A DNA stretch of 64,000 bases from an uncultured Armatimonadetes bacterium (GTDB taxonomy: Bacteria > Armatimonadota > UBA5829 > DTJY01). The notes under the pieces were generated by a model. It worked only from the letters and a program-made list of their open reading frames with translations, was not told the origin of the DNA and did not search any database. The translations under genes and the position numbers were made by a program. Shown in pieces: positions 38,893 through 50,015 of the stretch; the stretch's first letter is position 1, and every line of letters starts with the position of its first letter. Where the stretch lies: contig OY970325.1 in NCBI GenBank assembly GCA_963717145.1, forward strand, positions 3,328,001 through 3,392,000. Direction: 5' to 3'.

Positions 38893-40515
38893 CTAAACAT
38901 TGCCCCTTCTGTCACCGAAGGAATGGACGCGGATCGCGGCGACCGGCTGGATCGGGCAGGCGCACTCGCAGAGCCCGCATCCCACGCACTTCTCCTCATC
39001 GACGAACGGCACCTTCCACCCATCGACGACCTTCCACACGATCGCCTTGTAGGAGCAGTATTCGTCGCACACGATGCACTGCTTGCCGGCGTTCCAGGCG
39101 ATGCACCGATCGCGGTGGACGACCGCCGTGCCGATGAAGATGTCCTTCTTGTCCTTGATCTTGAACGGCTCGATTGCGTCCGTAGGGCATACCTCGCCGC
39201 ACGCATTGCACTCCTGCGTGCAGGCCCCGATCTTCGGCACGAGGATCGGCGTCCAGATGCCTTCGATCCCGGCTTCGAACATCGCGGGCTGGACGCCGTT
39301 GGTCGGACAGGCCTTCATGCAGAGTCCGCATCGAGTACACTTGGCGACGAATTCGCTCTCAGGAACTGAGCCCGGCGGGCGAATCAGGTATTCACTGCCC
39401 AACTTCACGGACGAGCCGGCGACCGTCGGGAGCTTCCGGCCGGGATCGATCTTGGCGACGGTCACCAGTCCGAGGCCGACTCCCATCCCCTGGAGCACCC
39501 GGCGGCGCGACAGATCCAGCCTAATCTCCCTGTCGAGCACCGGTCTCGGTCGCATACGGAAGCAGATCGCGTCCTGCGGGCAGACCTCCACGCAGTCGAA
39601 GCATTCGATGCACTCCATCACGCGTGTCTGACGCGGGTTCTCGAGGATCGAGGCCATCTTGCAGTCGTGGACACACCTGCCGCAGTCGTTGCACTTGGGA
39701 CTGACCGCCCGCTTGAGCACAGGGATATGGGCCATCAACCCGAGCAGCGCGCCGAGCGGACAGAGGTTCCGGCACCAATACCGACGCGAGATGCTGTTCA
39801 GGCCGATGATCCCGGCGAAGACCGCAAGAACGAGGAACGCCTGACCGAAGTACATCTGTTCGTTCGTGATGAAATCCGAGCCGGCCATCCGGTCACTGAG
39901 CCACATGCCGGACGACGCGAGCGGTCCGAAGCTGCTCTGGGACAGCGAGTACACATGGTTGGACGCCCATCGGAGCGCCATCTGAACCGGTGCGATGAAG
40001 CCGATCACGACCGTGCGATGGAGAAGGCTGATCGGGTCGAGCAGGTAGACGTACTGCATGCTGAACAGGGCTGTAACCGCCAGTCCCGCAAGGATGTAGT
40101 ACTTGAGGCTGTGCAGCCCACGACCAAGTCGTTGGGGATGGAGTTGGACTCCGTCCCGCTGAGCTTGGCGGGGGATGGAGTCCAACTCCATCCCCAACGA
40201 CTTGGTCGCGGACCGCGTCCTGCGCTTGCGGTAGAACAGTCGGTCCGCGAGATCGAGAGTCGTCCCTAGCGGACAGATCCATCCGCAGAAGATGCGCCCG
40301 AGCACGAGGGTCATCCCGACGATGATGAGCGAGATCGCCATCCCGGGAATGATCTTCCGCGCGGCGAGCATCGCGGTACCGGCGATCAGCGGATCGAGCC
40401 GCAGGAGCAGGTCCGACGGGATGCGGTTCCACAGCGGATATGCGGTTTTTAGCACGAGGAACAGGAACAGCCCGAGGAATACTACCTGGCTGACCCGTCG
40501 GATGGTTCGTGTCAT
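38893..40515 (-). CDS. Membrane polyferredoxin (NapH/MauN-like plus NapG/MauM-like), with an in-frame palindromic insertion
   Basis: GRIFCGWICPLG, RYWCRNLCPLG, several CxxCxxC motifs, IRPPGS. Confidence 0.88.
   Translation of the reverse strand: MTRTIRRVSQVVFLGLFLFLVLKTAYPLWNRIPSDLLLRLDPLIAGTAMLAARKIIPGMAISLIIVGMTLVLGRIFCGWICPLGTTLDLADRLFYRKRRTRSATKSLGMELDSIPRQAQRDGVQLHPQRLGRGLHSLKYYILAGLAVTALFSMQYVYLLDPISLLHRTVVIGFIAPVQMALRWASNHVYSLSQSSFGPLASSGMWLSDRMAGSDFITNEQMYFGQAFLVLAVFAGIIGLNSISRRYWCRNLCPLGALLGLMAHIPVLKRAVSPKCNDCGRCVHDCKMASILENPRQTRVMECIECFDCVEVCPQDAICFRMRPRPVLDREIRLDLSRRRVLQGMGVGLGLVTVAKIDPGRKLPTVAGSSVKLGSEYLIRPPGSVPESEFVAKCTRCGLCMKACPTNGVQPAMFEAGIEGIWTPILVPKIGACTQECNACGEVCPTDAIEPFKIKDKKDIFIGTAVVHRDRCIAWNAGKQCIVCDEYCSYKAIVWKVVDGWKVPFVDEEKCVGCGLCECACPIQPVAAIRVHSFGDRRGNV
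40121..40208. repeat. Family D-related palindrome inside the polyferredoxin gene
   Basis: 37 bp arms with one mismatch; core GGAGTTGGACTCC. Confidence 0.85.
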
Positions 40516-40527
40516 GGCGAAAAACCG

Positions 40528-40601
40528 TGTGGGAGTATGGGGGTATGGGAGTGTGGGAGCAAAGCCGCCCCCACACTCCCATACCCCCATACTCCCATAC
40601 T
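40528..40601. repeat. Family G octamer inverted array
   Basis: (GGG(A/G)GT(A/G)T)n ... (ACTCCC(A/C))n. Confidence 0.85.
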
Positions 40602-40604
40602 CTC

Positions 40605-41522
40605 CTACACTTTCTTCTGCGTGACCTTTGCGAGGTCGATCTGGCCGAGGCCGAGCTTCGATGCGGCAACTATGTGCCCCACGCGCTTCGGGTCCTTCCC
40701 GAGCAGCTTGCACGCATAGGCGTCGATCGCCACAGGATCGGTCGATGCGACGATGTGGCCGACGTCCTTCGTTTCGCCGGGGCCTTTCGGGCCGCGGGTC
40801 ATCAGCACCCGGATACCGTCGAGGATGATCAGGTCGGCCTTCACCGCCGATGCGTAGTCGGCGATGCACTGATCGAGTCCCTTGCGGTGCCAGTTCTGGC
40901 GGTCCCAGTTCAGGCCCATCAGGTTCTTCATGCTCGCGGTCATACCGGTCGAGCCGTGAACCTTCGCGATGGGAACGTTGATGAAGCAGTCGGCGTCGAG
41001 GACCTCCCGCATGCACTCATCCGCCTTCAAGAGCTTGCCCTTCGGGATCGAGACGCGCTTGTACCCCGTCCTGTTGTGGCCGGACACCAATCTGGCCTTG
41101 GTGGCGGCGCAGACTTTCTTGACGCCGCTCAGTTCGAACGCCGTCTGCCAGTCATCGCACGTGTGATCCACAATCGTGATGCGGCTTGCGCCGGCCTGCT
41201 TGCAGAGCTTGATGACGGCTGTCAGGACCTCGGGATTCGTATTCGCCGCCTGCCCGGGACTGCGCGCCCAGGCGATATTCGGCTTGATGGCGACGGAACT
41301 GCCCTTCTTGACGAACTTGCCCATCCCGCCGAGACCGTCGACCGCCTTCTTGACCCTGGCCTCGATGCTTCCGTTCCAGGCGATCGTCATGATCGGTCCG
41401 GCGGCCTCGGCTTCCTCGAGGAAGCCGAGCATCTCGTCGCCGACGAGCGTCAGTCCGTATGTCGCCGCACTTACTATGCCTGCCCGCCGCAGAAACTCGC
41501 GCCGGGTGAACTTGTCTGTCAT
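40605..41522 (-). CDS. DUF362 family protein with Tat signal
   Basis: TRREFL, VAIKPNI, ANTNP, INVPIAKVH, MKNLMG, DPVAID. Confidence 0.88.
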   Translation of the reverse strand: MTDKFTRREFLRRAGIVSAATYGLTLVGDEMLGFLEEAEAAGPIMTIAWNGSIEARVKKAVDGLGGMGKFVKKGSSVAIKPNIAWARSPGQAANTNPEVLTAVIKLCKQAGASRITIVDHTCDDWQTAFELSGVKKVCAATKARLVSGHNRTGYKRVSIPKGKLLKADECMREVLDADCFINVPIAKVHGSTGMTASMKNLMGLNWDRQNWHRKGLDQCIADYASAVKADLIILDGIRVLMTRGPKGPGETKDVGHIVASTDPVAIDAYACKLLGKDPKRVGHIVAASKLGLGQIDLAKVTQKKV

Positions 41523-41619: not shown

Positions 41620-42666
41620 CTACACTGTCCTTCGGATGATCTCCATCTTCGCGGGATCGTTCGTGCCGAGGCCGAGCGATGCCGCGGTCTCGATGAACTT
41701 GGTCGGCCGGCCGGATTCCGCAAACGGCTTGAGGCCGAAAACCTTGCGCTGTTCTTCGATGATCTGCCAGCCCTGGTAGTCCATGGTCACCGGATCGGCG
41801 CTGATCAGGATCGAGCGGTGCTCCCAGGCATACTGCGCGTTGTATCCGGGACCGCCCTGCGCGATCGGCTTGAGCGCATCAGTGACGATCAGCCGAGTCT
41901 TATCCTTGATCGCCGGGATCGAGTTCAACTCGGCGAGAAACGGGTCGCAGTTGTTGCCATGGTGAGCGCTCGGGTTATGATGCGAACCATAGTGGTTCTT
42001 CATCGCGCAGGTGACGCCCGATATGCTGTGGTCCTTGAGGATCGGCACATTGATGAGAGCGGTGATCTTCTCGGTCAGGATCCTGCTCAGCTTGCCGTTG
42101 AAGCTGCCCTTGCTGGTCGGCTCGGGCTCATACTCGCCTTCGGTACCGTAGCACGCGACGCCTTCGCCGGTGCGATTGATCACGAATCCGGCCTGGGTCA
42201 ACTCGCGATCGTTCCTGTCCCAGACGATGATGTTCTCCTCCTTGACACCGGCCAGCTTGAGGCCCGCGATGATGGAGGCGACTACCTCGGGATGCGTCGA
42301 TGCGTTGACCCGAAAGAGGCCGTTGATCTTGATCCCGACGACATCCGCCGGTTTGAAGAGCTTCTTCCACGCCGCCGCCTCGGACGACGCACCGGTGAAT
42401 GCCCTCATGCCACTGGCGACCATGGAGTTCAGCACCGACTGATCGACGGCCGGGTCCACCTCGCCGACTGATGCCATCCCGAGCTTCGAGACCGTCTTGG
42501 CGTTAGTTGCCGGATCGACCAGGACCTTGTCACCCCTGACTATCACCAGGCGAGACCTGCCGTCCGTGGCTGCGAGCGCGTCGAGCGAGAGTATGCCCGC
42601 TCCATATATCCCGGCGCCGGTCACCGCCGCGCCCTTGATGAACTCACGTCTGCTAAGCTTTGTCAT
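41620..42666 (-). CDS. DUF362 family protein with Tat signal
   Basis: SRREFI, VGIKIN, INVPILKDH, MKNHYG, DPVTMD. Confidence 0.85.
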   Translation of the reverse strand: MTKLSRREFIKGAAVTGAGIYGAGILSLDALAATDGRSRLVIVRGDKVLVDPATNAKTVSKLGMASVGEVDPAVDQSVLNSMVASGMRAFTGASSEAAAWKKLFKPADVVGIKINGLFRVNASTHPEVVASIIAGLKLAGVKEENIIVWDRNDRELTQAGFVINRTGEGVACYGTEGEYEPEPTSKGSFNGKLSRILTEKITALINVPILKDHSISGVTCAMKNHYGSHHNPSAHHGNNCDPFLAELNSIPAIKDKTRLIVTDALKPIAQGGPGYNAQYAWEHRSILISADPVTMDYQGWQIIEEQRKVFGLKPFAESGRPTKFIETAASLGLGTNDPAKMEIIRRTV

Positions 42667-42766
42667 ACCTGCTCCTTGATGCTTGACGCCGGAAACCGAG
42701 TAGTGGTTTCCGGATTCTCTATCGATGAACTTCGGGGGAGGAAGGCAGGAACTATGAACGGTGAAA

Positions 42767-43183
42767 CTACTCCAGTATCTCCTCGGGCGCAAACCAGATG
42801 GCGATCTCCGTCTGCGCGCTTTCGGGGGAGTCGGATCCGTGCACCAGGTTCTCGCCGGTGCTGAGCGTGAAATCGCCGCGGATCGTGCCGGGGGCAGCCT
42901 GCAGGGGATCGAGCGCGCCCATCATTCGGCGTACGTGGGCGATCGACTCGTCGCCCGCGATCACCATCGCGACGATGGGGCCGGACGACATGAACTCCAC
43001 GACGCCTTCGAAGAACGGCTTGCCTCGGTGGACCTCATAGTGCTTCTCCACCAGTTGCCTCGACGGCTTGAGGACCTTGAGGGCTCTTATCTCGAGGGTG
43101 CGGCTCTCGAACCTGCGAATTATCTCACCGATCAGGCCGCGCTTGACCGCATCCGGCTTGATCAGCACCAACGTCTGTTGCAT
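42767..43183 (-). CDS. ndk: Nucleoside diphosphate kinase
   Basis: TLVLIKPDAV, PGTIRGDF, NLVHGSDS. Confidence 0.97.
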   Translation of the reverse strand: MQQTLVLIKPDAVKRGLIGEIIRRFESRTLEIRALKVLKPSRQLVEKHYEVHRGKPFFEGVVEFMSSGPIVAMVIAGDESIAHVRRMMGALDPLQAAPGTIRGDFTLSTGENLVHGSDSPESAQTEIAIWFAPEEILE

Positions 43184-43189
43184 GCGTAC

Positions 43190-43218
43190 AGTATAACAAA
43201 GCGGCATTGGGGTGTCAA
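43190..43218 (-). promoter_or_regulatory. Sigma70-type promoter giving a probably leaderless ndk mRNA
   Basis: TTGACA-N17-TATACT, 6 nt before the ATG, no SD. Confidence 0.75.
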
Positions 43219-43244
43219 CGTATTATGCGCCCTTGGAGTGCCGG

Positions 43245-43341
43245 CGGGAGGGCGAGGCTCCGTCCGAGCCGGGATGCTTCGGCAGCAGAGCACAGTGGCG
43301 CTGCCGAAGCATCCCGGCTCGGACGGAGCCTCGCCCTCCCG
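43245..43341. repeat. Family A palindrome with a family K unit nested in its loop
   Basis: Outer arms match 1186-1251; inner GATGCTTCGGCAGC...GCTGCCGAAGCATC matches 34146-34250. Confidence 0.85.
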
Positions 43342-43425
43342 TTGCCATGCCGAGCATCCATCAAGCTGATCACTAGGCAGAGGAAGATGCGCATGTAAAA
43401 TATTATAAAAGTTTTCCTTGCGTAA

Positions 43426-43451
43426 GTTTGGAAACTCGACAGTAGGGGTAA
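43426..43451 (+). promoter_or_regulatory. SigB/SigF-type promoter candidate of the structured RNA
   Basis: GTTT-N16-GGGTAA downstream of an AT-rich tract. Confidence 0.5.
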
Positions 43452-43727
43452 AAGAGAGACGGCAGGGACATGGAAGTCGGCTGACTATAGGACGACTCCG
43501 AACGGGTTAAACCTGAAATGCCGCAGTCAGCCGACTTCCAACCAAAGTGTAGCCGGGAGGCGGGTAGGGCTTGAGGCCGCCCAGTCCCCGAGCGAGTATC
43601 GATCTTCGGACACGCGGCAAGCGTCTCTGGGTGTGACGCTGTGACCCGAAGGTCAAAGGCTTCCGGTAAAGGACTACATGTGGGGTGTGATCCTTATGCC
43701 GGTAAGCGAAAGGCTTGCTCTGGAGAT

Positions 43728-43756
43728 TTGCCCTACATACTGCCTTCTGCTATAAT
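43728..43756 (+). promoter_or_regulatory. Sigma70-type promoter of the amidase gene
   Basis: TTGCCC-N17-TATAAT with extended TG. Confidence 0.65.
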
Positions 43757-43785
43757 GAGGCCGGGCTCACCCCCGGCCTCATTTG
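43754..43785 (+). terminator. Terminator-like hairpin
   Basis: AATGAGGCCGGG...CCCGGCCTCATTT; short U tail. Confidence 0.55.
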
Positions 43786-43816
43786 CATGTATACCGTGAA
43801 TCTCGGGAGAAACACC

Positions 43817-45832
43817 ATGAAACCCGTCACTGCCATTCTTCTCTCCGCTGCCGTCCTCGCGCTCGCTCTCTCATCGCTTCTTGCGGATTCCGGCAAGCGC
43901 ATCCCTGCTCCCAACATAGTCCCAAAGGACCAGTGGGGATCCATGAAAGAGGGTGACCGCTACCAGGACAAGATCTTCGACCCGTATTCCCAGGGTGCCC
44001 TGGGCGATCCGTTGGCGATCACCATCCATCACACCTACCGTCCGGCCGGAGCGAATCCGCCGGACCCCGAGGAGGACAAGAAGAAGCTCCAGGAGATCCA
44101 GAACTTCCACGTCGGCAAGGGATGGGGAGACGTCGGCTATCACCTGCTCATCGGCAGCGACGGCACCGTCTACCAGGGACGTCCGCTCGGCTGGATGGGC
44201 ACACACGCGCCCCCGAATACGTCGAACATCGGCGTGAACGTCATCGGCGACTTCCAGGAGTCGGAGTACCCCTCGGCGGCCCAGCTCGAGGGGCTGACGG
44301 GGCTCGTCACCTGGCTGTGCAACAAGTATGACATCGATCCGGCGGGCAAGGCAGTGATATTCGAGCAGACCGGCCCTGCGGTGGGCGGCCACAGGGACTG
44401 GAATCCGACCCTCTGCCCCGGAGACAGGCTCTATGCCCTCCTGGCCGACGTGCGGACACGCGCCCGAGCGAACCTCCTTGCAGGGCATTCTCCATATGAC
44501 GCGCGCCCGTCCGTGCTCCAGTACTTCCCCCGAGTCCTGCTCGCCGGGCAACCATACGACCTGGCCCTGTACATGAGGAATGTAGGCTACGTGCCGTGGT
44601 CTCACCTCAACAAGATTGGGATCGAGTCCCTTTCACCGAGTCTGGTCACCATCGCCGAACCGCTGCTGAAAGAGGGCGAGGCGGTCGAGACCCTGGCAAA
44701 CAGGCCGTGGCAGATACACATCCAATCGCCGGAAACCACGGGCGTTCAGCGCCTGGCGGTCAGCATGACCGAGGCACATGGCCGCTTCGGAGATGAGATC
44801 GCGTGGGACGCGGACGTTCTCGCCCCTGATGCGTTCATCTCCGAGTGGCTTACCTCGGGTCACTTCGAGATGAAGGCGGCGGACGGAACCGCTGCTGGGG
44901 CCGATGCGCTTATCGCAAAGGACTTCTTTGCCGGCCAACCGCTCGACGTGATGGATACGATGGATGAGGTGAGCGAGAAGGCCCATGGATATGCCGTCAA
45001 GGACGAGTACACAAGCGGCGAGCGGAACTTCCGCGGCCCGGATGGCGAGCGGGTGAAGGACAGCGGTCGGTACTTCTACGGCGAGGAAAGCCTCAAGCTT
45101 TGCCTCGGCGACCACCGGGACGGCGACCTGATCCTCCGCCGGTTGATCGATGCCGGCGACAGAGATCAGCGCGCGGCGATCACGGTCGACGGCAGGTGGC
45201 AGACGGTTTGGAAGCATCCCGGCGCGGAGCGATACCGCCTCTGGAAGGAAGTCGACACCATCATCCCGTCCTACCTTCTTGCGCACAAGCAGGCCATTGA
45301 TGTGAATCTGAAGTCGCTTGGCACGGTGCAGTACGGCTGCAACTCGTTCAGATACGCCCTGCTCGATTCCGGCGAGCCGCTCACAGCGCCGAGGCTCGGC
45401 GACAAGTTCACGGGCGGCGACTGGCAGCAGTGGAAGTCGCACGACGGACTGACCGACCTTTCAACGGCGTTCCCCGGCAACACGAGTGGAGCGGTCTACC
45501 TGGCGGCATACGTGAAATCGCCTAAGACGCAACTCGCCGAGATTCGGACGGGATGCACGGCGCGGATGAAGGCGTGGGTGAACGGCGAACTCGATGTGAC
45601 CGGCCGTGGTGGGAAGCCGAGCTTCCCGGATACCGAGACGGGATCCATTCTGTTGAAGAACGGCTGGAACCGCATACTGGTCAAGGTTGCCCTCGAACCC
45701 GGCATCAAGGACCTCTACGTGCGACTCTGCGACCGCCAGGGGAAGCCGATCCCCGGCCTGAGGGTTTCTCTCGATCCGACTGACAAGAGTGACGCAAAGC
45801 CTGAAGACATCCGAACGGCGAGGAATGGTTGA
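43817..45832 (+). CDS. Secreted multidomain N-acetylmuramoyl-L-alanine amidase (PGRP/Amidase_2-like)
   Basis: Signal peptide; ITIHHT, GWGDVGYHLLI..DGTVYQGR, GHRD..PTLCPG; Ig-like and beta-sandwich domains follow. Confidence 0.85.
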   Translation: MKPVTAILLSAAVLALALSSLLADSGKRIPAPNIVPKDQWGSMKEGDRYQDKIFDPYSQGALGDPLAITIHHTYRPAGANPPDPEEDKKKLQEIQNFHVGKGWGDVGYHLLIGSDGTVYQGRPLGWMGTHAPPNTSNIGVNVIGDFQESEYPSAAQLEGLTGLVTWLCNKYDIDPAGKAVIFEQTGPAVGGHRDWNPTLCPGDRLYALLADVRTRARANLLAGHSPYDARPSVLQYFPRVLLAGQPYDLALYMRNVGYVPWSHLNKIGIESLSPSLVTIAEPLLKEGEAVETLANRPWQIHIQSPETTGVQRLAVSMTEAHGRFGDEIAWDADVLAPDAFISEWLTSGHFEMKAADGTAAGADALIAKDFFAGQPLDVMDTMDEVSEKAHGYAVKDEYTSGERNFRGPDGERVKDSGRYFYGEESLKLCLGDHRDGDLILRRLIDAGDRDQRAAITVDGRWQTVWKHPGAERYRLWKEVDTIIPSYLLAHKQAIDVNLKSLGTVQYGCNSFRYALLDSGEPLTAPRLGDKFTGGDWQQWKSHDGLTDLSTAFPGNTSGAVYLAAYVKSPKTQLAEIRTGCTARMKAWVNGELDVTGRGGKPSFPDTETGSILLKNGWNRILVKVALEPGIKDLYVRLCDRQGKPIPGLRVSLDPTDKSDAKPEDIRTARNG

Positions 45833-48003: not shown

Positions 48004-48804
48004 ATGTTCAAGATTTGTGTATGCATCAAACAGGTCCCGGCGACGACCGAGGTCAAGATCAACCCGGAGACCAATACCCTCGTCCGCGAGGGAGTCGAGT
48101 CGCAGGTGAATCCCTTCGACCTCTATGCCCTCGAGGAGGCGGTCCGCATCCGGGAGCGACTTCAGGGTGAAGGCGAAGAGGCAAGCGTTACCGTCGTCAG
48201 CATGGGCCCGCCCCAGGCCGAGGCCGCGCTCCGTGACGCGATCGCTCTCGGTGCGGATGAGGCGATCCTGCTCTCCGACCGGGCGTTCGCGGGCGCGGAC
48301 ACCTGGGCAACGTCATATGCCCTCGCGATGGCCCTCAAGAAGCTCGAGCCGAACCTCATCTTCTGCGGAATGCAGGCGATCGACGGCGACACCGGCCAGG
48401 TCGGTCCCGGGATCGCAGTCCACATGGACTACGCCCAGGCGACCTACGTCTCGAAGATCGAGGAACTCGACGCCAAGAAGGTCACGGTCAAGCGGCTCGT
48501 CGAGCAGGGGTATGAACTCTGCTCCGTGAAGCTGCCCGCGGTCCTCACCGTCGTCAAGGAGATCAACGAGCCGCGGACGCCGTCTCTCCGGGGCAAGATG
48601 AACGCCAAGAAGGCCGAAATCCCGGTCTGGACGGCGGCCGACATCGACGCGCCGCCGGAGAAACTCGGCCTCCAGGGGTCGCCGACTCAGGTCGTGAAGG
48701 TGTTCAGCCCGCCTCACCGCGAGGGCGGAGAGCGATGGGAAGGCGAACCGGCGGAACTCGCCGACAAGCTTGCCGGGCTGCTGAAAGAGTTGGAGATAGT
48801 CTAG
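48004..48804 (+). CDS. etfB: Electron transfer flavoprotein beta subunit
   Basis: VCIKQVP, NPFDLYALEEA, SMGPP, GADTWAT, IDGDTGQVGP. Confidence 0.95.
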   Translation: MFKICVCIKQVPATTEVKINPETNTLVREGVESQVNPFDLYALEEAVRIRERLQGEGEEASVTVVSMGPPQAEAALRDAIALGADEAILLSDRAFAGADTWATSYALAMALKKLEPNLIFCGMQAIDGDTGQVGPGIAVHMDYAQATYVSKIEELDAKKVTVKRLVEQGYELCSVKLPAVLTVVKEINEPRTPSLRGKMNAKKAEIPVWTAADIDAPPEKLGLQGSPTQVVKVFSPPHREGGERWEGEPAELADKLAGLLKELEIV

Positions 48805-50015
48805 TGTCAATCCGAGTTATTGAAGATAAGTGCAACGGGTGCGGGCTCTGCGTGAAAGCATGCCCGATGGCGGCGATCGAAGTCAGCAACAAGATGGCGA
48901 TCATCGACCTCGATATCTGCAACTACTGCAGTTCGTGCGTCTCGACCTGCCGATTCAAGGCAATCGCCATCGAGATCGACAAGCAGCCGGCGGAGGACCT
49001 CAGCCAGTACAAGGACGTCTGGGTCTTCGGCGAGCAGTTCAAGGGCCACATCGCGCCCGTCGTCCTCGAATTGATCGGCGCGGGCCGTCAACTCGCGGAC
49101 GATCGAGGCTCGGGACTCTGCGTCGTCGTGCTCGGCGACAACCTCGATCAGGCCTCAGCCGAACTCGCCGAGTATCCGGTGGATAAGGTTTATCTCTACG
49201 AAGCGCCTGAACTCGCGGACTACGATGGCGAGCGGTATTCCAGAGTGCTTTCGGACCTCGTGCGCCGGATGAAGCCGGAGATCATGCTCGCCGGCGCGAC
49301 TACTCAGGGGCGCTCGTTCATGTCACAGGTGGCGATCCGGCTCTACACCGGCCTCACCGCCGACTGCACCGGTCTGGCGATCGGCAAGGACGACGGGCTG
49401 CTCTATCAGACGCGCCCCGCGTACGGCGGAAACGTCATGGCGACCATCCTGTGCCCGTACACGCGGCCTCAGATGGCGACCGTCCGGCACAAGGTCTTCC
49501 CGACGAGTCCCAAGCAGGCGAACGGCTCGAGGGCCGAGGTCGTCAAGCTGACCGCCAAGCCTCAGCTTTTCAGTTCGAGGAGCCAGATCCTCGATTTCAT
49601 CGAGGCATGCGAGGCGACGGTGAACATCGTCGAGGCGGACATCATCGTCTCCGGCGGTCGAGGGATCGGCGACCCGTCGAACTTCTCAGTGCTGGCGGAA
49701 CTGGCCCAGGAACTCGGAGCCGCGGTCGGGGCGAGTCGCGCGGCGGTCGATGCGGGATGGATTCCATACTGCCATCAGGTCGGGCAGACGGGCAAGACGG
49801 TCTGCCCGAAGCTCTACATCGCCTGCGGGATCAGCGGCGCGGTCCAGCACCTCGCGGGGATGTCATCGTCGGACACGATCATCGCGATCAACAAGGACCC
49901 GAACGCGCCGATCTTCCAGGTTGCGAGCTTCGGCTTCGTCGGCGACGTTCTGGAGATCGTACCGCTTCTCACGAAGCGGATCCGTGCGATGCGGGGACAG
50001 ACCGTGAACGCGTAG
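48804..50015 (+). CDS. etfA: Electron transfer flavoprotein alpha subunit with N-terminal 2[4Fe-4S] ferredoxin
   Basis: CNGCGLCVKACP, CNYCSSCVSTC; TGLTADCT, QVGQTGKTV, GISGAVQH. Confidence 0.95.
   Translation: MSIRVIEDKCNGCGLCVKACPMAAIEVSNKMAIIDLDICNYCSSCVSTCRFKAIAIEIDKQPAEDLSQYKDVWVFGEQFKGHIAPVVLELIGAGRQLADDRGSGLCVVVLGDNLDQASAELAEYPVDKVYLYEAPELADYDGERYSRVLSDLVRRMKPEIMLAGATTQGRSFMSQVAIRLYTGLTADCTGLAIGKDDGLLYQTRPAYGGNVMATILCPYTRPQMATVRHKVFPTSPKQANGSRAEVVKLTAKPQLFSSRSQILDFIEACEATVNIVEADIIVSGGRGIGDPSNFSVLAELAQELGAAVGASRAAVDAGWIPYCHQVGQTGKTVCPKLYIACGISGAVQHLAGMSSSDTIIAINKDPNAPIFQVASFGFVGDVLEIVPLLTKRIRAMRGQTVNA

Follow-up and report, generated by a model that had tools for sequence, protein, structure and literature searches.

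What is encoded by a stretch of some 330 nucleotides that has no open reading frame (ORF) of note and lies immediately upstream of an amidase gene in a bacterium from a little-studied phylum? The stretch occupies positions 43,426 to 43,785 of a window of 64,000 nucleotides, the whole of the DNA analysed here, taken from an uncultured Armatimonadetes bacterium (assembly GCA_963717145.1, contig OY970325.1, positions 3,328,001 to 3,392,000), and all coordinates below without a genome handle are those of the window. A preliminary description, drawn from the letters alone, proposed a stand-alone, three-domain RNA of an undescribed class with a stress-type promoter and a terminator of its own. We give a probability of roughly 0.5 to the reading that the locus is an independently transcribed, lineage-specific structured noncoding RNA (ncRNA) of an undescribed family, about 300-345 nt long and read from the + strand, that is interlaced with the promoter of the amidase operon. 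The element is delimited as follows, its 5′ end being placed between about 43408 and 43462 and its 3′ end set at the close of a terminal hairpin and its short T run.

43460..43786, + strand: structured non-coding RNA, with no Rfam match, six distinct homologous sequences, a consensus fold and a G-U/A-C asymmetry

No known family and no reading frame

The 4227 covariance models of Rfam 15 yielded no match anywhere in the window at gathering score (0/4227 families). A permissive scan (E<=10) of 43100-44100 gave 26 matches, most of them on a 100-bp palindrome at 43243-43344; those inside the RNA (mir-14, 18.4 bits; mir-5881, 16.9; snoR9, 14.8) are at chance level and far under their thresholds. 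Riboswitch and T-box models found nothing in the same interval even at E<=10 and were rejected, and so were the four housekeeping RNAs, none of which matches at the locus and each of which has its copy elsewhere in the genome: RNase P RNA (RF00010; G000:C1:3580208-3580619, 271.2 bits), 6S RNA (RF00013; G000:C1:3075589-3075774, 78.7 bits), transfer-messenger RNA (tmRNA, RF00023; 156.5 bits) and signal recognition particle (SRP) RNA (RF00169; 65.5 bits). A confident match to any known family, which would have removed the proposed novelty, is thus lacking, and the undescribed-class claim is supported by this result, by the separate location of the housekeeping RNAs and by the compensatory changes among homologues set out below. 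A narrow literature search likewise found nothing joining Armatimonadetes with noncoding RNA covariation, nor this amidase-linked element.

The stretch is ORF-free, as originally noted, in that only short frames of 30, 52 and 49 aa lie inside it; a 705-aa frame from 43715 is the amidase gene extended back to an upstream TTG, the conserved ATG being at 43817. Relatives differ by indels of 1 and 2 nt throughout and keep no reading frame, and the stretch is therefore non-coding.

Relatives in two subfamilies

The genome, a single contig of 5.37 Mb, holds one copy of the element, in agreement with the preliminary description. BLAST against 41 related genomes matched the element over its full length in two further genera of the family (82% in G001, 77% in G006); a family-wide search returned the same two and nothing more, and a covariance model of the long 5′ hairpin D1 (see below) found no homologues beyond them across 53 genomes of the class. 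An 18-mer scan of the genomes of 185,579 species retrieved 15 stretches, only one of which fits the D1 model (L012, which is G001), and a metagenome scan retrieved three: a copy identical to G001 over the aligned region, a new close relative (L028), and a chance match within a coding region (L026), rejected as a homologue. Also set aside was a 136-nt palindrome in G001:C29 (L010, 1501-1636), an unrelated long hairpin repeat to which the D1 model gives about 25 bits on either strand.

These sequences form subfamily A, namely the window genome (G000), L028, G001 and G006. Inspection of the DNA upstream of orthologues of the amidase gene located a second set, subfamily B, in two genomes of another genus (G010 and G005), at the same position and of a length within about 12 nt. 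Subfamily B is much more divergent and shares with A just a few blocks: GGGTA; GGGTAGG ... CCGCC(C)AGTC; ATGTGGGGTGTG; GATTTGCCC; TG-n-TATAATGAGGCCGG; and the terminal hairpin. When 401 genomes spread over the phylum were searched with a strict pattern built from the shared 3′ blocks, 4 were hit, every one of them in this family; G006 escapes the pattern owing to a one-base deletion. Altogether the RNA is present in 5 of the 11 family genomes (4 of 10 genera) and one metagenome contig, with near-identical DNA contigs in public runs, and it was not found beyond that family in the searched sets (the 53 class genomes, the 401 phylum genomes and the 18-mer scan). It is confined to about four genera of one bacterial family. 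Within its range it is at least as conserved as the adjacent coding gene (DNA identities of 79.9% and 75.8% for the RNA vs 77.2% and 71.0% for the gene). Two orthologous amidase loci, in G009 and G007, lack such an RNA; in G009 the space upstream of the amidase orthologue is filled by a small ORF of ~50 aa (MKKTFDSIEFMRQAREKL..., L034 1158-1310).

Strand and fold

The + strand folds at -158 kcal/mol vs -121 +/- 6.5 for shuffles (z = -5.65; none of 100 shuffles as good), and the fold of subfamily B also lies far beyond its shuffles (z = -5.01). Since the minus strand of the window sequence has an equal score (z = -5.66), folding energy alone gives no strand. The strand emerges instead from the pattern of substitutions in a consensus fold obtained with RNAalifold from the four subfamily-A sequences: its cells hold 48 G-U vs 7 A-C appositions, and the same helices are 96.9% paired when read as + and 87.2% when read as minus. 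The + strand is therefore favoured.

The consensus fold comprises 106 pairs, 11 of which are changed on both sides. Not one of 500 shuffles reaches it, a control to be read with the proviso that four related sequences can beat shuffles without any structure; sliding the partner by 1-3 columns leaves only 0-3 double changes. Between the two subfamily-B genomes there are 16 differing positions, 7 of them within pairs, and pairing is kept in all 7. Homologues with compensatory base-pair changes thus exist.

Most of the fold differs from the one first drawn. Every pairing listed in the preliminary description is complementary in the window, and its helices, counted on the same four sequences, amount to 57 pairs, of which 3 are changed on both sides (2 of them in D1), with 86.8% of cells paired; D1 itself stands, most D2 and D3 helices are broken in relatives, and the consensus fold fits better (96.9% vs 86.8%). 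The 16-bp D1 stem (43471-86/43525-40) is 96.9% paired with 2 compensatory pairs. The GGCAG/CTGCC stem thought to close the whole structure is 95% paired, but it never covaries and competes with a better-supported helix. Uncompensated changes tell against TGTAG/CTACA (78.9% of cells paired), CCGGGAG/CTTCCGG (85.7%), TGACC/GGTCA (80%) and the GTAAGC/GCTTGC cap (58.3%), the last being displaced by an inner helix at 43583-96/43714-28. The parts of the revised fold are these:

43471..43540, + strand: D1, long hairpin whose 16-bp stem encloses two small hairpins at 43490-99 and 43503-15; helices 2-4 of the consensus fold
43549..43570, + strand: 5′ strand of the long closing helix PL (GUAGC, GGGAGGCGG, GUAGGGC), pairing with 43730-43753
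43583..43596, + strand: inner helix closing the junction of H2 and H3, 5′ strand (AGUCCC, GAGCGAG), pairing with 43714-43728
43601..43654, + strand: H2, 54-nt hairpin containing the invariant block GGACACGCGGCAAGCGUC; helix 9, 18 pairs, 100% paired, 1 compensatory pair
43659..43707, + strand: H3, hairpin tipped by the 12-nt motif AUGUGGGGUGUG (43678-43689); 4 compensatory pairs in helices 10-12

Both subfamilies support PL, whose outer 9 bp are complementary at 9/9 positions in all six sequences in spite of different letters (GGGAGGCGG/CUGCCUUCU in A, AAGGUGGGC/GUCCACCUU in B); its inner 7 bp are complete in four sequences and reach 5/7 in two, and in subfamily B PL is a run of 18 contiguous bp. 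Inside PL lie the conserved junction block (GGGUAGG ... CCGCC(C)AGUC) and the inner helix (helix 8), which has 13 pairs, 3 of them compensatory, with 96.1% of cells paired and 5 changes on one side only. The hairpins vary in sequence. D1 is represented in subfamily B by a hairpin of about its size but with other letters (outer stem AGGAGGCUGC/GCAGUCUUCU), and at the place of H2 there is a 61-nt hairpin of unrelated sequence. The stem of H3 also varies (AAGGA/UCCUU in G000, CUGGGGU/ACCCUGG in B) and displays the same motif, AUGUGGGGUGUG, which is identical in G000, G010 and G005 and differs at up to 2 positions in L028, G001 and G006.

Several further contacts were considered. The complementary segments TGCCGC, in the D1 loop, and GCGGCA, a candidate pseudoknot, are both invariant in subfamily A and were not seen in B on reading its sequences; a look-alike in G010 (6 bp, GAAAUG/CAUUUC) is broken in G005, where the change instead suits a local helix, and was rejected. 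Kissing between the H3 loop (GGGGUG) and the loop of the terminal hairpin (CACCCC) is possible in A, but the latter loop differs in B and the contact is not conserved. Pairing of the H3 loop with the amidase ribosome-binding region amounts to 5 bp in G000 and none in B and was dropped, and so was a CsrA-type sponge, GGA motifs being frequent, by inspection, only in D1 of subfamily B.

A predicted promoter within the 3′ part of the RNA

The amidase operon very probably has a promoter of its own, P2, judged promoter-like from its bases, and this site and the hairpin that ends the RNA share the same DNA:

43728..43756, + strand: P2, predicted sigma-70-type promoter of the amidase operon (-35 TTGCCC, 17-nt spacer, TG-n-TATAAT; 10 of 12 plus TG)
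43754..43783, + strand: T, terminal hairpin and putative terminator of the RNA, with a 12-bp G+C-rich stem and loop CUCACC, then UUGCAUGU; helix 13, identical in the four subfamily-A sequences

A site of equal quality (10 of 12 with TG) is scored at the equivalent place in subfamily B; the 17-nt spacing is the same in all six sequences, the spacer sequence differing, and in the RNA-less loci of G009 and G007 a TG-n-TATAAT likewise precedes the start codon, by 29-31 nt. P2's -35 box and spacer are covered by the 3′ strand of PL. T starts within the -10 box and straddles the predicted P2 start site (about 43763-65), and its 12-bp stem is kept in all six sequences, with the arms retained and the loop changed in B. 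This compact overlap of a terminator-like hairpin with a promoter at 43754-43783 is likewise kept in 6/6 sequences.

Two consequences follow for how conservation is to be read. The conserved GATTTGCCC and TG-n-TATAAT blocks would serve as promoter DNA and as RNA alike, which accounts for the equally frozen state of the segments they pair with (GGGTA and the hairpin's 3′ arm). P2's spacer, being the 3′ strand of PL, covaries with a partner 180 nt upstream, a covariation for which a promoter alone has no need. This bears on the view that the locus is no RNA at all, and that what is conserved is regulatory DNA (operators, UP elements) or a gene for a small protein. Some of the conserved letters do belong to promoter DNA, namely the two promoter boxes (-35 and -10) and the palindromic arms of T. 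Compensatory pairs 180 nt apart, a strand-specific asymmetry of G-U vs A-C and conservation reaching 270 nt upstream of P2 nevertheless fit such a region poorly, and indels that break every frame and a longest ORF of 52 aa speak against a small-protein gene; we hold either version to be highly improbable. It is also improbable, if a little less so, that the act of transcription matters and the product does not, the upstream promoter repressing P2 by occlusion and the RNA being a by-product. The position of P2 inside the transcribed region, with T spanning its predicted start, would suit occlusion, but a by-product would not retain about 100 bp through compensatory and G-U-preserving changes, nor hold a 12-nt loop motif near-invariant across both subfamilies.

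The upstream block and signs of transcription

A candidate for the RNA's own promoter lies in the following feature:

43423..43454, + strand: conserved upstream block (TAAGTTTGGAAAC ... GGGGTAAAAG), with fixed spacing in the four subfamily-A sequences

The block may serve as a promoter (P1) for the RNA, or it may already belong to the transcript as its first bases. The GTTT-N16-GGGTAA arrangement in it, taken originally for a stress-type promoter, is present and keeps its spacing in the four close homologues; the stress-type interpretation gains no support. In subfamily B the very position of the TAAAAG of A (43449-54) is taken by a plain TATAAT, with a canonical sigma-70 site scored there, and the GTTTTGG block of B lies 9 nt further upstream (its GGGTA block reads GGGTATAAT). 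The proposal that the RNA stands alone is plausible, backed as it is by a canonical promoter between the structured part and the amidase gene, with both transcript ends still predicted. A metatranscriptome contig of 212 nt that falls wholly within the RNA (43521-43733; 4 mismatches and 1 gap, about 98% identical) is a weak hint of its transcription, assembled contigs showing neither ends nor strand. In run X20 no contig lies on the flanking genes, but missing cover is no evidence and is not counted; another metatranscriptome (X8) matched only a palindrome resembling repetitive extragenic palindromic (REP) elements.

On the reading of the locus as an independent RNA gene, the transcript would consist, in order, of a 5′ leader, the D1 hairpin, the large PL-closed domain (junction block, H2, and H3 with AUGUGGGGUGUG) and T. 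Transcripts from the upstream promoter would contain T complete with its two arms and end at it, which would yield a discrete RNA, while those from P2 would begin inside the 5′ arm, be unable to form T and continue into the amidase gene. Binding of a protein or ligand would probably fall to the conserved junction and the H3 loop, D1 and H2 being a variable scaffold, and transcription of the RNA across P2 would interfere with that promoter, so that expression of the amidase operon would run inverse to that of the RNA. The analysis shows the conservation, the strand, most of the fold, the promoter-like site and the constant gene neighbourhood; the two transcript ends, termination at T, the binding and any influence on P2 are inferred.

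Gene neighbourhood and the case for a leader

The genes on either side are these:

43817..45832, + strand: secreted 671-aa protein with an Amidase_2 domain (Pfam PF01510, E = 1.1e-20) and one N-terminal hydrophobic segment
45829..47685, + strand: DUF6785 multi-pass membrane protein, second gene of the operon (Pfam PF20581, E = 7.8e-151; 7 hydrophobic segments)
42767..43207, - strand: ndk, divergent upstream gene (Pfam PF00334, E = 1.8e-56)

Orthologues of the amidase occur in 7 of the 11 family genomes at E<=1e-20 (one of them partial at a contig end) and in 6 of the 53 class genomes at E<=1e-60, the gene itself being confined to this family. The amidase/DUF6785 operon follows the RNA directly and in the same orientation in all six RNA sequences, whereas the upstream neighbour is ndk in subfamily A only (G000, L028, G001 and G006) and a GxGYxYP-family gene in B. 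With the downstream gene constant and the upstream gene differing, the RNA is tied to the amidase side.

That arrangement is also what would be seen if the RNA were a cis-regulatory leader of the amidase/DUF6785 operon, riboswitch-like or a protein-controlled attenuator, which is the main rival and, we think, a possible though less probable account. Transcription would then start upstream, the folded domain would sense a signal, T would decide between stop and readthrough, and P2 would supply basal expression only. The constant, co-oriented operon downstream and the changing gene upstream speak for it, as do the restriction of the RNA to genomes with this amidase (of the 7 family genomes that possess an orthologue, 5 have the RNA), the clustering of conserved nucleotides at the junction and loop while the helices vary, which is aptamer-like, the alternative partners of the PL 3′ strand, and the abutting of T on the structured domain. 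Of two traits general to riboswitches and attenuators, a structured domain upstream of the regulated gene in the same orientation is present in 6/6 sequences, and the absence of an independent promoter between sensor and gene is not, P2 being there by its sequence. It is this near-consensus extended -10 promoter, found between folded domain and gene in both subfamilies, that counts against a leader, as it would bypass an attenuator; moreover, no convincing antiterminator appears on reading the sequences, the best alternative to the 12-bp T stem being 4-5 bp (CCUU/GAGG), and no Rfam riboswitch or T-box model matches.

A more doubtful elaboration would make the element a new class of large sensor RNA, its gene woven into the promoter that it controls. 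The junction and the AUGUGGGGUGUG loop might bind a cell-envelope signal or protein, and the alternative partners of the 3′ strand might set the output of a potentially self-lytic amidase/membrane-protein operon.

Returning to the independent, promoter-interlaced RNA, which we still prefer, a number of points weigh against it besides the neighbourhood, whose constancy on one side also fits a cis-regulatory role. The sequences number only six and come from a single bacterial family; of the 106 pairs, 72 show no variation; the pairing figures are inflated, the fold having been derived from the same sequences on which it was counted; and the interior of the large domain, from PL to H3, cannot be aligned helix for helix between A and B. 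In subfamily A the PL 3′ strand (43727-43748) has three other possible partners, namely the H3 loop (the original D3), 43461-65 (the original closing stem) and the 5′ leader at 43440-52, so the fold may, as far as base complementarity goes, switch between alternative forms. The leader helix (43440-52/43727-42) is 95.3% paired with 1 compensatory pair, a result that 88 of 500 shuffles reach, and among these competitors PL alone is supported by subfamily B. As to the ends, no canonical sigma-70 site is scored upstream of the RNA in subfamily A, and T is not called a terminator in A or B: the downstream hairpin of the preliminary description is present at 43754-43783, but its tail of just 3-4 T falls short of the rule of 5 T in 8. 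Assembled contigs of public runs can give neither transcript ends nor strand, and the ends of the RNA are accordingly to be taken as predicted.

Some features of the surroundings deserve separate mention. The near-perfect, G+C-rich palindrome of 100 bp (43243-43344) lies between ndk and the RNA and attracts spurious Rfam miRNA matches, the highest of which (48.7 bits) is still under its threshold. Many unrelated contigs of four public runs contain its 38-nt core (43273-43310), with differing flanks and loops. By these traits it fits a REP/REPIN-type repeat. The C-terminal 145 residues of the amidase (512-656), which have no Pfam domain, recur at 35% identity within a 1273-aa frame in two relatives (G010:C24:174404-174838 and G005:C11:255821-256255; L036 and L037), and the recurrence suggests an unnamed shared domain. 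Further away lie genes for electron-transfer flavoprotein (ETF) beta and for an ETF alpha that begins with a ferredoxin domain (48004-50015), a large multi-4Fe-4S protein (38893-41016, - strand) and a TAT-signal DUF362 protein (41620-42792, - strand), which together point to an anaerobic electron-transfer neighbourhood.

Relation to known RNAs

Surveys of intergenic regions by the Breaker laboratory have described orphan structured ncRNA motifs (PMC11109978, PMC8632094, PMC6429828), and the present RNA resembles them in being intergenic, conserved and free of ORFs, in having helices that covary, in its narrow taxonomic range and in lacking an assigned function. None of the motifs included in Rfam 15 matches it. 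At about 300 nt and with several branches it is larger than most such motifs. Judged by its sequence features, the element would be a new family of this known general kind; what is unusual in it is the overlap of the RNA fold with a promoter.

Three other comparisons are instructive. OLE RNA (RF01071) is a large, ornate, lineage-restricted bacterial ncRNA whose gene lies beside that of a membrane protein, and the RNA described here is also large, lineage-restricted and near a membrane-protein gene (DUF6785); it differs in giving no match to the model at E<=10, in being about half the size, in belonging to another phylum and in having an amidase and DUF6785 as neighbours. The ydaO/yuaA (c-di-AMP) riboswitch (RF00379) stands upstream of cell-wall hydrolase or amidase genes and is followed by a hairpin; the present RNA is likewise structured, upstream of an amidase gene and followed by a hairpin, but has no match to that model at E<=10, is about twice as long and has a canonical promoter before the gene. 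With 6S, RNase P, tmRNA and SRP RNA, which are stand-alone, abundant, structured and of 100-400 nt, it shares a general format, and it differs in that none of their models match it.

Significance

Few bacterial ncRNAs reach 300 nt or more and have many conserved helices, and the ones whose role has been solved are ribozymes, ribonucleoprotein scaffolds or elaborate sensors; the element described here would add one from a little-studied phylum. Given its narrow range (about four genera and six sequences), its general importance may be small. Its arrangement, in which the same 60 bases are the closing helix and predicted terminator of one transcript and the probable promoter and start of the next, is an unusual overlap, and it offers a directly testable coupling between an RNA gene and a cell-wall hydrolase operon.

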